From Candidatus Omnitrophota bacterium (GTDB taxonomy: Bacteria; Omnitrophota; Gorgyraeia; Pluralincolimonadales; Pluralincolimonadaceae), in the NCBI GenBank assembly GCA_041651455.1, contig JBAZJG010000003.1, positions 83,793-147,792 of the forward strand: a stretch of 64,000 nucleotides of DNA, read 5' to 3'. Positions 37,424 through 43,459 of this stretch are shown here, piece by piece. Both the position numbers and the translations under genes were made by a program. The notes below the pieces were generated by a model. That model was not told where the DNA came from. It did not search any database and saw nothing but the letters and a program-made list of their open reading frames with translations. The number at the start of each line of letters is the position of its first letter. The first letter of the stretch is position 1.

Positions 37424-39366
<1,943 letters not shown>

Positions 39367-39390: not shown

Positions 39391-39678
39391 ATGAACCTTA
39401 AGCCATTAGGCGACAAAGTGATCGTGGAAGTATTGAGCGCCGAAGAGAAGACAAAGGGCGGCATCATACTCCCGGACACCGCGAAGGAGAAACCGCAGGA
39501 AGCGAAGGTCATAGCCGTCGGATCGGGCAAGGTGCTCGATAACGGCAAGACGGTCGCTCCCGATGTGAAGGCCGGAGACATAGTCATTTTCGGGAAATAT
39601 TCCGGAAGCGAGGTCAAGGTCGAAGAAAAAGAGTACTTAATTATAGACTCGGATGACATCTTGGCAATAGTTAAATAA
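39391..39678 (+). CDS. groES: Co-chaperonin GroES (copy 2, divergent paralogue downstream of groEL).
   Basis: 95 aa, about 60 % identical to copy 1 ([13 protein letters not shown]…[25 protein letters not shown]…). AAGGAGG RBS. Confidence 0.9.
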
Positions 39679-39689
39679 TAAGTACTTTT

Positions 39690-39741
39690 AACACAATAGT
39701 GCCCCTTGGCTCCGCGGTCAGGGGGCATTTTACTTTGTGTT
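39690..39741 (+). terminator. Imperfect GC-cored hairpin followed by a T-rich tract; candidate intrinsic terminator of the groESL-groES operon.
   Basis: Arms aacacaa…gtgcccc and gggggca…ttgtgtt enclose a 15-nt loop, then ttttactttgtgtt. It marks the boundary to the low-GC island. Confidence 0.35.
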
Positions 39742-39856
39742 AATCAAAGTGAATAGTGGCATAAATTTCGTTAAGGATGTGTAGATAACTAAGAGCATGA
39801 ATCTGCATATTATATGTTGCGATGAAAGAAAAACCAAGCAATAACCTGGAGTACTC

Positions 39857-41887
39857 GTGAATAAGATAGACCTACATATACACACAATTCCTACAGTGAG
39901 CGACTCCCCCTTCAGCTTCAAACTCGCCACATTACGGAGATACGTCGTTGAAGCAGCTTTGGATGCCATTGCCATAACGAACCACAATGTATTTGACCGC
40001 AGTCAGTTCACAGCAATTGACAACGAACTGGATGTTGTTGTCTTCCCCGGGATAGAAGTTACCCTCGACTGCGGGCACATTCTCATAATCAGTGACATAG
40101 CCAAGCTGAACCAGTTCGAGAAACAGGCTCAGCAACTTCACAGCCGCATTACCCAAGCTCATGACAGCATCACTATTGATGAGCTTACAAAAATCTTCCA
40201 TAATTTAGAGGAGTACCTGGTCATTCCACATTATGATAAGAAACCAGCAATCAAAGACGATGCTCTGAAACGCATGGCGAAATACGTATCGGCTGGTGAG
40301 GTGGATAGCGCCAAGAAATTCATCCGTGCAATCAAGGACGACGCAAAAGTTACACCGGTCCTTTTCAGCGACATTCGAATCGGCGATACACTCGATAACA
40401 TTCCTACTAGACAGACCTTTGTTGACTGCGGCGAGGTTACGTTGGCTGCCCTCAAGAAATGCCTGCAAGACAAAGGGAAGGTTGCCCTGTCTGAAGCCCA
40501 TGGGAATAGCCTTTTCCAGATTTTTGACGACGGCCAGAAGTTATCTACAGGACTCAACATCCTTCTAGGTGAGAGATCGTCAGGGAAAACATACACCCTA
40601 GATAAAATCAATGCATCGCATGACCAAGTAAAATACATCAAACAGTTCTCGTTGGTGCAACAAGATGAAGTCGCGTGTGAACGCGAATTCAGCCGAGATC
40701 TCCAGAGAACCAGGAGCCAATTTATCGAAGAATACCTATCAAGGTTCAAGATTGTTCTAAATGATGTTATGAATGTCGACCTGTATTCTGATGATCGAGA
40801 AGTTGACAATTACATCCTTAATCTTCATGAGGCTGCGGAGGAAGCAGACAGGAGAGACGCCTTCTCAAATTGCGCACTATTTGATGAATCGGAGTTTTCG
40901 ATTAGCGATGATAAGGTACTGATTGAGTTGATAGCATCAATTAGGCAGATAATACAGAATGTTGAATACCAACCAATCATTAATAAATATGTGGACCGTC
41001 AGTCGCTCAAGCAGCTTGCAGTAGAACTAATTGAATTGCTCTGGGCAAGAGGACGTGAATGGAAGAAGAAGACTATAGTAAACGAGATGGTACTTGAGAT
41101 TCGGCAGGCGCTGAAGAGACGCACGTCTACGGTTCAGGTTCCCGACGTAAATCTCTACCGCGTGAGCTTAAACAAAAAAAAGGTTGAAACATTCTCCGAG
41201 ATTGTAAAATGTCTCCAAGAACATGCAGTAATCTCAGAGGAACCTATCCAGAGGTTCCGGGTTATTGCGACAAAGGATCCCTTCGCGGGAGCAGGCGAGA
41301 TTAAATCTATAAGTGGGGTAAAGACGACATTCCGTGAATCGTTTGCGGAATACGCACACCCCTATAAGTATCTACAGGCGTTGCTATCCAATGATGATTT
41401 GACTCGCTCAGAAATATACAAGTATTTTGTGAAGATAACCTACAGTATTCTAAACCCGGATGGATTCGAAGTATCTGGTGGTGAGCGATCAGAGTTTAGG
41501 CTACTTCAAGCGATCAAGGATGCACAAAACTATGACATTCTACTGGTCGATGAACCAGAGTCCTCCTTCGACAACCTATTTCTCCGGAGCGATGTCAACA
41601 AAATCATCAAAGAGATTTCGGAGACGATGCCAGTAGTTGTGGTTACTCACAACAGCACTGTGGGTGCGTCGGTTGGTGCCGATTATCTCCTGTATGCAAG
41701 GAAGGAGATAGAGGAAGGCAAAGTAGTCTACAGATTGTACTCTGGCTATCCAACGGACCTAACTCTTCACTCCCTCGACGGCAAAGCGATCAGCAACTAT
41801 CAGATCACAATGAATTCACTTGAGGCGGGCTGCGAAGCCTACGATAACAGGAGGAATGGATATGAAGCTATTAGAGATAAGGGATAA
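39857..41887 (+). CDS. Fusion protein with an N-terminal PHP-family phosphoesterase domain and a C-terminal ABC/SMC-type (OLD/AAA_15-21-like) ATPase; candidate defence nuclease-ATPase.
   Basis: PHP His motifs (IDLHIHT, AITNHN, IPHYD) in the first ~200 aa. Walker A LLGERSSGKTY, ABC signature-like SGGERSE, Walker B ILLVDEPESSFD, and H-loop VVVTHN. GTG start. Markedly lower GC and AT-rich third codon positions. Confidence 0.8.
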   Translation: MNKIDLHIHTIPTVSDSPFSFKLATLRRYVVEAALDAIAITNHNVFDRSQFTAIDNELDVVVFPGIEVTLDCGHILIISDIAKLNQFEKQAQQLHSRITQAHDSITIDELTKIFHNLEEYLVIPHYDKKPAIKDDALKRMAKYVSAGEVDSAKKFIRAIKDDAKVTPVLFSDIRIGDTLDNIPTRQTFVDCGEVTLAALKKCLQDKGKVALSEAHGNSLFQIFDDGQKLSTGLNILLGERSSGKTYTLDKINASHDQVKYIKQFSLVQQDEVACEREFSRDLQRTRSQFIEEYLSRFKIVLNDVMNVDLYSDDREVDNYILNLHEAAEEADRRDAFSNCALFDESEFSISDDKVLIELIASIRQIIQNVEYQPIINKYVDRQSLKQLAVELIELLWARGREWKKKTIVNEMVLEIRQALKRRTSTVQVPDVNLYRVSLNKKKVETFSEIVKCLQEHAVISEEPIQRFRVIATKDPFAGAGEIKSISGVKTTFRESFAEYAHPYKYLQALLSNDDLTRSEIYKYFVKITYSILNPDGFEVSGGERSEFRLLQAIKDAQNYDILLVDEPESSFDNLFLRSDVNKIIKEISETMPVVVVTHNSTVGASVGADYLLYARKEIEEGKVVYRLYSGYPTDLTLHSLDGKAISNYQITMNSLEAGCEAYDNRRNGYEAIRDKG

Positions 41888-42155
41888 TCTTGGATATTAT
41901 CTTGATGCCAACAACGCATTCGTTCTAATTGACAAGATCACCAAGGAAGATCTTCTCAGGCTGGTAGACCAGACGCTTAACAAAGATGTTGAGTTTGACG
42001 AGTACAACGATGAGGCCGTCAAGAATCAAGCTCATCAGATTCTCTATAAAAGTATATTTGAGAAGTTACAGGACTTGAAAGTGCGCAGAAAAGAGTTCAC
42101 TGATGAGTCCAAACGACTATATTTGCAGGAGCACGAGTGGTATCGAAAGAAATAG
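41862..42155 (+). CDS. Small acidic helical protein (~97 aa) translationally coupled to the PHP-ATPase gene. Function unknown.
   Basis: AGGAGG RBS lies inside the 3' end of the upstream gene, 7 nt before the ATG at 41862. It overlaps the upstream stop by about 26 nt. The track ORF starts at an upstream TTG at 41820. No recognisable domain. Same low-GC composition. Confidence 0.55.
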   Translation: MKLLEIRDNLGYYLDANNAFVLIDKITKEDLLRLVDQTLNKDVEFDEYNDEAVKNQAHQILYKSIFEKLQDLKVRRKEFTDESKRLYLQEHEWYRKK

Positions 42156-42238
42156 TCACAGAAAGGAACGGAAGGCGATGCGATAAGCTACGCGCCTTAG
42201 CACCTGCGTTGGCGACCCTTCTAAATATGGGGATTTCC

Positions 42239-42267
42239 TTGACTTTTTAACCCGGTTTTTGTATCAT
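42239..42267 (+). promoter_or_regulatory. Sigma-70-type promoter upstream of the IMPDH-like/guaA pair.
   Basis: TTGACT, a 17-nt spacer, then TATCAT, about 30 nt upstream of the AAGGAGG RBS of the 42299 gene. Confidence 0.4.
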
Positions 42268-42298
42268 AATTGTCTAAATTCAAGGAGGTTCCGGAAAC

Positions 42299-43459
42299 AT
42301 GGGTGAATATATAGGTATCGGAAGGAAGGCCCGCCGTTGCTACGGTTTTGATGAGATCGCGCTTGCCCCGGGAAGAGTCACGATAAACCCCGCAGAAGTA
42401 GATACAAGCTGGAAAATAGACGGAAAGAAATTCAATGTGCCCATACTTGCCGCCGCCATGGACGGCGTCGTTGACGTCAAGTTCGCGATAGCGATGGGAA
42501 AGGTCGGAGGCGTGGCGGTGCTCAACCTCGAAGGCGTCCAGACCAGATATGAGGACCCGGACGAGGTCCTCGAGCAGCTTGTCAGGGCCGACCCCGAGAA
42601 GGCCACCGAGATAATCCAGTCGATATACACGAAACCCATACAGGAAAAGCTCGTAGAGAAGAGGATCCGCCAGATAAAAGATGCCGACGTACCCGCGGTA
42701 GTCAGCGCGATACCGCAGCGCGCGGAGAGGTTCGGCAAGATAGCGCAGGACGCAGGCGCGGACATCTTCGTCATACAATCCACGGTCAGCACCGTTAAGC
42801 ATCTTTCTAAGGAATACAAGGCCCTCGACATAAAGAAATTCTGCAAGTCGGTCAAGATACCCGTCATCGTAGGCAATTGCGTCGGATATGATGTCGCGAT
42901 GGACCTCATGAACAGCGGAGCGTCCGCGATACTCGTAGGCATCGGCCCCGGCGCCGCATGTACGACAAGAGGCGTACTCGGCATCGGCGTACCGCAGGTC
43001 ACCGCGACGGTCGACTGCGCGGCAGCACGCGACGTGTTCTTCAAGAAGACAAAGAAATATATCCCTATCATAACGGACGGCGGAATGAGGGCCGGCGGCG
43101 ACATCTGCAAGGCGTTCGCCTGCGGCTCGGATGCCGTAATGGTAGGTTCGGCATTCGCGAGGGCGGTGGAAGCGCCCGGCCGCGGTTACCACTGGGGGAT
43201 GGCCACGCCCCATGCGAACCTCCCGCGCGGTACAAGGATACATGTAGGCACTACCGGGACGCTCGAGGAGATACTCTTCGGGCCCGCCAGGTTCGACGAC
43301 GGCTCGCAGAACCTCATGGGCGCGCTGCAGACATCTATGGGTTCGGTCGGCGCAAAGGACATCAAGGAATTCCAGAAGACAGAGATCATAATAGCTCCGT
43401 CCATAAGGACCGAGGGAAAGATATTCCAGCAGGTCCAAAGAGTGGGAATGGGCAAATAA
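42299..43459 (+). CDS. guaB: IMP dehydrogenase family protein lacking the CBS/Bateman subdomain (GuaB3-like short form).
   Basis: Catalytic Cys loop [11 protein letters not shown], phosphate-binding …[25 protein letters not shown]…, and N-terminal …[11 protein letters not shown]…. Only a ~60 aa linker where the CBS pair would be. Immediately upstream of guaA. Confidence 0.7.

Follow-up and report, generated by a model that had tools for sequence, protein, structure and literature searches.

Two described systems lie closest to the gene pair considered here. PDC-M49 is one of 145 candidate phage-defence systems, predicted from the location of their genes inside BREX, DISARM or type I restriction-modification (RM) loci, and in RefSeq it comprises the cassettes FAM_00021>>FAM_01695 and FAM_00021>>FAM_02682 (Payne et al. 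2024, bioRxiv 10.1101/2024.01.29.577857). The name PDC-M49 occurs in no paper's searchable main text. Ppl is a single-gene PHP-NTPase and a validated anti-phage 3'-5' single-stranded DNA exonuclease of E. coli (Gao et al. 2020, as described in PMC12904381 and PMC11482910). According to these sources, Ppl is held off by bound nucleoside triphosphates (NTPs) and activated by 3'-OH ends from phage homing endonucleases. We analyzed a 64,000-nucleotide stretch (the window) of contig JBAZJG010000003.1, from a Candidatus Omnitrophota metagenome-assembled genome (MAG; GCA_041651455.1, positions 83,793 to 147,792 of the forward strand), which carries a large PHP-ABC-ATPase gene, PDC-M49A (hereafter A), and its small partner gene, PDC-M49B (hereafter B). 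Coordinates are window positions throughout. Our overall best explanation, to which we assign a probability of roughly 0.55, is that B serves as the second, obligate subunit in a mobile module of two genes, docking on the ATPase of A and gating its nuclease.

On its profile matches, the pair is a member of PDC-M49 as held in PADLOC-DB v2.0.0. The protein encoded by A matches the PDC-M49A hidden Markov model (HMM; PDLC04680) at E = 1.9e-292, with residues 1-673 aligned to positions 1-673 of 674. B matches the PDC-M49B HMM (PDLC04682) at E = 1.3e-32 over positions 1-95 of 97, and also PDLC04683 at E = 2.9e-16; two subfamilies of B have been described. The genes are adjacent, share a strand and follow the A-then-B order, so that two full-length matches form the same two-gene cassette with no structural difference. 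What differs is the setting, since the cassettes that defined PDC-M49 lie within BREX, DISARM or type I RM loci and the present copy, in an Omnitrophota MAG, is flanked by groES and a guaB-like gene. The window pair is a further member of a catalogued candidate system, not a new kind of system. The initial annotation of this DNA, made from the sequence alone, had taken B for the component most likely to be undescribed. This is half right: the family is catalogued as PDC-M49B, but no domain is assigned to it and the libraries searched gave no fold match.

The arrangement of the two genes is summarized in Table 1. As the initial annotation had it, an AGGAGG motif sits inside the last codons of A, 7 nt ahead of the B start codon (spacer AATGGAT), and B overlaps the PHP-ATPase gene and encodes a product of about 97 aa; both points are exact in the sequence. 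The two frames overlap out of frame, and the product of B is MKLLEIRDNLGYYLD...EHEWYRKK. Position 41820, where the small open reading frame (ORF) was mechanically called, is merely its first in-frame TTG. Another in-frame ATG, at 41856, is separated by 1 nt from the Shine-Dalgarno (SD) motif; it differs from the conserved start, and no homologue uses it. Homologues of B and the PADLOC profile start at MKLL, and database entries longer than B are gene-caller extensions into the upstream gene.

Table 1. Features of the PDC-M49 locus and its edges in the window.
Feature	Position	Strand	Description
Terminator-like hairpin after second groES	39698..39729	+	Upstream edge of the low-GC two-gene insert; GC drop
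A (PDC-M49A)	39857..41887	+	GTG start, 676 aa; N-terminal PHP domain, ABC/SMC-type ATPase
SD motif AGGAGG of B	41849..41854	+	Two Arg codons (AGG AGG) in the C-terminal 'RR' of A
B (PDC-M49B)	41862..42155	+	ATG start, TAG stop; 97 aa, 11.9 kDa, isoelectric point (pI) 5.7
Dual-coding overlap of A and B, 26 nt	41862..41887	+	A ends ..Y E A I R D K G stop; B frame M K L L E I R D
Promoter-like site TTGACT-17-TATCAT of guaB-like gene	42239..42267	+	Downstream edge of the insert; GC rise

One alternative is that the small ORF is a spurious overlapping frame that is not translated; its small size and lack of a recognizable domain, and nothing else, speak for this. A search of 5.8 billion proteins returned 328 homologues of B with E values down to 1e-55, and identity to B is 63-82% among the best 120 of these 328. 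The exact B sequence already has a database entry, as a hypothetical protein from a Candidatus Omnitrophota MAG. Searching 1.84 billion cluster representatives with a profile yielded 401 clusters (50% identity), of which almost all are free-standing proteins 96-120 aa long. None of the homologue clusters contains B as a domain within another protein, and the sole candidate for a natural A-B fusion, P0256, turned out to be a frameshifted fragment. Across 55 sequences, with the overlap excluded, pairwise nucleotide identity in B is 0.63, 0.72 and 0.36 at codon positions 1, 2 and 3. Third positions are thus far more variable than first and second positions, which indicates selection on the protein.

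Start, length, sequence, codon-position pattern and SD motif of B are conserved in more than 130 loci. By these comparative sequence data a spurious frame is excluded, and we regard its probability as negligible. The initial annotation had proposed that the small ORF would be discredited if it lacked expression and also conservation beside PHP-ATPase homologues elsewhere; on conservation the opposite holds, with 328 homologues and linkage at every informative locus. B is almost certainly a real gene and an obligate genetic partner of A.

The linkage was assessed in both directions. Anchoring on B, a scan of one genome per species gave 57 loci, and A lies directly upstream in 55 of them. Of the two exceptions, one is at a contig end and the other (L025) has IS6-family transposases in place of A, so that A is present at 55 of 55 informative loci. 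The A-anchored set consists of 80 metagenome loci and 2 viral-collection loci; these were chosen for the best A matches and are therefore biased toward intact loci. The initial annotation had suggested searching metagenomes for co-occurrence of the two homologues, and in this set B lies 3' of A in 80 of 82 loci, or 80 of 80 informative ones, as the other two contigs stop less than 70 nt past A. In all, 135 related loci carry A and then B on one strand. A stoichiometric partner would be expected to co-occur in just this way, at all informative loci whichever gene serves as the anchor. No third conserved gene was found within 6 kb on either side of the pair.

The distribution of the pair is patchy and spans more than 10 bacterial phyla as well as Enterococcus plasmids. 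The B-anchored loci come from Desulfobacterota, Planctomycetota, Fibrobacterota, Omnitrophota, Verrucomicrobiota, Bdellovibrionota, Spirochaetota, Elusimicrobiota, Bacteroidota, Firmicutes and several classes of Proteobacteria. Across 134 loci, the overlap between A and B is 20 nt in 91, 23 nt in 16, 26 nt in 13 and 29-122 nt in 14. It is never shorter than 20 nt and is always 2 mod 3, keeping the relative frame constant. A core SD motif falls within -17 to -5 of the ATG of B in 93 of 118 non-redundant loci, compared with 10.6% of background windows. Within the SD stretch, 88% of Arg codons are AGR, versus 49% elsewhere in A (odds ratio 7.9; Fisher P = 6.6e-36). This bias indicates selection on the nucleotides of the ribosome-binding site (RBS) of B, and not just on the C-terminal peptide of A. 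The earlier proposal of a stoichiometric partner coupled to A is well supported comparatively, given that the overlap and SD arrangement recurs across phyla and the genes co-occur at all informative loci both ways.

The same stretch also has a second role in A. In the window (41849-41887) and in homologous loci, the codons of the conserved C-terminal peptide of A (..RR.GYEAIKD) also carry the SD motif and the first seven codons of B, and the ATG of B comes from Y669-E670 of A. The tail of A doubles as the start signals of B, so its conservation may be imposed in part by B.

The two proteins evolve at similarly slow rates. The mean distance for B is 0.46, compared with 0.34-0.48 for segments of A, and pairwise distances of B follow those of A (r = 0.745). 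The partial correlation with B is about 0.2 for the helical insert and the ATPase C-lobe of A and 0.04 for the PHP domain.

The large protein consists of a PHP metal-dependent phosphoesterase/nuclease domain at about residues 1-200, followed by an ABC/SMC-type ATPase. The ATPase contains a Walker A motif (GERSSGKT, 238-245), a signature motif (SGGERSE, 540-546), a Walker B motif (D565-E566) and an H-loop (H598), and is interrupted by a helical insertion of ~185 residues at about 271-455. Such an insert brings to mind OLD, PARIS, Septu and Rad50-like enzymes. Among 27 homologues of A, the candidate PHP ligands (H7, H9, D16, H43, E67, H74 and H125) and the Walker A core (G238, R240, S241, G243, K244 and T245) are invariant, as are SGGERSE, D565-E566 and H598. 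Pfam returned only weak ABC/SMC matches on A; PF02811 (PHP domain) is present in some of its close homologues. Sub-threshold NCBIfam matches were to CehA/McbA metallohydrolases (4-103), the TrlF-family ATPase and the Spaf_1101-family ATPase, and a literature search for 'TrlF' found no relevant paper. A comparison of the A profile with PDB sequences found ABC transporter motifs only.

In structural searches with Foldseek, the confident N-terminal part of the predicted A structure matched PHP structures 2anu, 3f2c and 7ug9 with probability 1.0; the PHP matches include TM0559, the PHP domains of PolC and Pol III alpha, and RNase AM. By fold, the ATPase part matched SMC-type heads weakly. Because the PHP fold matches are joined by invariant PHP and ATPase motifs, the label PHP-ATPase, which A already bore in the initial annotation, is a fair name for it.

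The small protein is better predicted. Its AlphaFold2 model has a predicted local distance difference test score (pLDDT) of 89 and a predicted template modelling score (pTM) of 0.72, with strands at 2-7, 10-14 and 20-22 and two helices, one at 28-40 and a long one at 56-96. The predicted fold is thus an N-terminal three-stranded sheet, a helix and a 40-residue C-terminal helix. B had been described as acidic and helical. The first holds weakly, as the pI in Table 1 and the count of 20 D+E versus 18 K+R indicate; the middle segment is acidic, and the C-terminal helix is basic (11 K+R versus 7 D+E). The second holds for the two helices and misses the predicted sheet. Conservation is concentrated in the N-terminal strand (MK.LKI), the first helix (D.I.K..LL.L), NQAHQI.YK (55-63) and F.DES.RL.L..YE.Y (79-94). 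Within the last of these, conserved positions encircle the helix rather than being confined to one face, so this helix may be buried in a protein interface.

The observation that B has no recognizable domain was borne out, as no credible relative emerged from Pfam, NCBIfam, PHROGs, PDB or viral folds. Among 71 family members Pfam gave no domain above threshold, and a match to the Thoeris inhibitor Tad5 (PF25190) is attributed to chance because it was sub-threshold (15.3 bits versus a cut-off of 27) and seen in 1 of 71 members. NCBIfam gave one chance match only, to IF-6 (E = 0.02; 14 bits versus a cut-off of 320), and PHROGs gave none. Sequence and profile searches of B against PDB returned noise only. 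Foldseek found nothing at E <= 0.001 either in PDB (best E = 0.29, template modelling score 0.14) or among viral predicted structures, and none of 50,697 phage genomes (INPHARED) carries a homologue of B.

These properties bear on the possibility that B is not an inhibitor but a sensor or specificity subunit, which would recognize a phage protein or a nucleic-acid end and relay the signal to the ATPase, or would target the complex to DNA. A small, separately encoded subunit is an easy seat for specificity, and the basic C-terminal helix could touch nucleic acid. However, phage-protein sensors are usually the most variable part of their systems, whereas B is conserved at the identities given above, with its two described subfamilies, and matches no known nucleic-acid-binding fold. 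We consider this role rather improbable.

Decayed copies of the locus bear on another alternative. In the L025 locus, a Gammaproteobacteria MAG (CBDCJB010000002.1, 5008-6815), B is intact, insertion sequence (IS) transposase genes of the IS6 family on both sides replace A, and only the last few codons of A (..PYEAIKD) are left ahead of B. In a second lineage (L058-L063; 21 metagenome contigs with P0077), an IS has cut A to residues 337-673 and B is intact. These contigs break about 115 nt upstream, at the apparent N-terminus of an IS5/DUF772-type transposase on the opposite strand, and AbiEi/AbiEii genes lie 3.5 kb downstream.

Retention of B where A has been destroyed would fit an antitoxin-like neutralizer with no function beyond inhibiting A, with A an intrinsically toxic nuclease and the pair forming a toxin-antitoxin (TA) or addiction module activated by loss or degradation of B. 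No locus with intact A and missing B was seen, and the pair occurs on plasmids, adjoining recombinases and TA genes. Type II and IV TA systems likewise have a small protein beside a potentially toxic nuclease or ATPase, mobile carriage and a small gene kept in decayed loci. However, the A-anchored set is biased toward intact loci and just two independent decayed lineages were found. In addition, type II antitoxins have an RHH, HTH or AbrB fold (RHH, ribbon-helix-helix; HTH, helix-turn-helix) and usually an upstream gene, whereas B lies downstream of A and is overlapped by it, and its predicted fold lacks the DNA-binding fold typical of antitoxins. Antitoxins usually evolve fast, and B is as conserved as A. 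Taken together, we consider an antitoxin role unlikely.

The neighbourhood of the pair in other genomes varies by locus, mixing defence, mobile-element and ordinary metabolic genes. Defence neighbours include Wadjet JetA/JetB, HmaC, Thoeris ThsB, type II and III methyltransferases, AbiLi, AbiEi/AbiEii, Mrr, PDC-S11 and PDC-M12, and mobile-element neighbours include integrases, transposases and resolvases. The pair is borne with a 20-nt overlap by 30 Enterococcus plasmids, including E. faecalis pTEF2 (NZ_CP046110.1, 27573-29898; locus L065), where it is annotated as WP_002367824 ('histidinol-phosphatase') and WP_002367825 (hypothetical). There it lies between two recombinase genes, with transposon (Tn) genes, a RelE/ParE toxin and an 'abortive infection family protein' nearby.

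In the window, guanine-cytosine (GC) content is 0.41-0.48 across 39750-42300 compared with 0.53-0.63 in the flanks, and B shares this low-GC composition, as had been noted. The edges of the insert coincide with the hairpin and promoter-like site in Table 1; no direct repeats or att-like sites were found flanking it.

This context is relevant to a non-immune role, in which A and B would form a DNA-repair or processing complex, or serve mobile-element maintenance, with B structural. PHP domains serve in proofreading and in RNA or DNA end processing, as the fold matches to PolC, Pol III alpha and RNase AM illustrate. The present copy sits among housekeeping genes, and the anti-phage role of PDC-M49 is itself that of a candidate (bioRxiv 10.1101/2024.01.29.577857). 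On the other side stand the patchy cross-phylum distribution, a GC content below that of the host, and variable neighbours rich in defence and mobile-element genes, patterns that typify horizontally moving conflict systems and not core repair genes. A non-immune role is very improbable in our estimate.

The reading we prefer, that B is a gating second subunit, can be set out in steps. The genes form an operon of two, with the RBS and start of B inside the end of A and the stop of A 20-26 nt inside B; B would be made from the mRNA of A and its amount would be tied to A synthesis. Two helical blocks of B that hardly vary (55-63 and 79-94) would then mediate direct binding to A, and B would dock on the ATPase half rather than on the PHP domain. 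As a latch or adaptor, it would keep the nuclease off until a phage-derived cue alters the state of the ATPase. This model borrows its logic from ABC-ATPase/nuclease defence complexes and from the single-gene exonuclease Ppl.

Confidence differs between the parts of this proposal. A and B probably form a physical complex, and the balance of the data favours a phage or mobile-element defence system. A specifically inhibitory or gating role for B is possible, and we advance it tentatively. More doubtful is the idea that B founds a new fold of small 'gatekeeper' subunits, which would grip the arm or the head of the ATPase in an immune nuclease of the PHP-exonuclease/ABC-ATPase type. In that case, a dedicated, co-translated protein latch would stand in for the nucleotide-pool sensing reported for Ppl, and a phage cue that releases or rearranges B would be the activating event.

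Several results weigh against the gating-subunit proposal. Here the pair sits amid housekeeping genes (groESL, guaB-like, guaA and dnaE) and not in a defence island, and PDC-M49 has the standing of a candidate in the work that defined it (Payne et al. 2024, bioRxiv 10.1101/2024.01.29.577857). The RNA structure at the junction is nothing unusual (z = 0.22); it gives no signal of a structure hiding the start of B and no sign of structure-dependent coupling. Any coupling would thus run through ribosome proximity and re-initiation, or would be simple co-transcription, and would not involve hairpin unmasking. The partial correlations hint only weakly, if at all, that B follows the ATPase half of A (partial r = 0.2). 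Inter-protein covariation, scored as mutual information with average product correction (MI-APC) over 118 pairs (effective number of sequences 68), is dominated by high-entropy columns and shows no clustering. Finally, the monomer model of A has low overall confidence (pLDDT 64, pTM 0.39) and is reliable at residues 1-125 only; outside the PHP domain its quality is too low for the ATPase to be placed precisely.

Some further observations concern the locus and its carriers. Two full-length groES (Cpn10) genes (37424-37711 and 39391-39678) flank groEL (37735-39366) upstream of the pair. With about 72% identity over 109 nt between the two copies, the duplication is old, and the PDC-M49 insert starts directly past the terminator of the second copy. 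Pseudomonas sp. H1h has two copies of the pair on two contigs (L021 and L023) with homologous downstream neighbours, which suggests that a mobile element was duplicated or integrated twice. Two IMG/VR contigs (L146 and L147) contain A, at 53% and 42% identity, together with B, and no INPHARED phage genome has the pair; these contigs may represent prophage carriage or misclassified mobile elements. The pair is also found on a 4.4-kb contig of an archaeal MAG (L007; CAYVFQ010000065.1, 'uncultured archaeon'), which could reflect genuine inter-domain transfer or a binning error.

The analysis turns a bare PDC-M49 database entry into a defined, testable two-subunit system. Culturable carriers of the pair include Enterococcus faecalis with pTEF2-type plasmids, Pseudomonas sp. 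H1h, Marinobacter and Alteromonas, so genetics and biochemistry are feasible. If B does gate the nuclease, it would represent a new mode of control for ABC-ATPase immune nucleases, and would help explain why related PHP-NTPases work as single genes.

Kleisins, Lamassu LmuC and the Rad50-binding helices of Mre11 are small, largely helical partners of SMC-like ATPases and offer an analogy for how B might dock. The likeness would be one of role only, as no sequence or fold similarity to B was detected and B lacks the winged-helix or other kleisin-like helical head-binding domains of SMC-kleisin complexes. Like Ppl, A joins a PHP domain and an NTPase in one polypeptide. The ppl model is absent among the 8 PADLOC families matched by A at E <= 0.1, which makes A Ppl-like in design and outside the Ppl family. 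Ppl works as one gene, lacks a small partner and is reported to be held off by bound NTPs, whereas PDC-M49 has B at all 80 informative A loci, a dedicated and co-evolving protein subunit. The logic of an ATPase that controls a nuclease is held in common with PARIS AriA-AriB, Septu PtuA-PtuB, Gabija GajA-GajB, AbiL, HEC-01 to HEC-03 and MADS mad3/mad8, and the ATPase of A has weak PADLOC matches to AriA, AbiLi, HEC-02A, mad3 and mad8. In those systems the partner is a large nuclease or helicase, whereas PDC-M49 joins nuclease and ATPase in one protein, and its partner, at 97 aa, has no catalytic motif.

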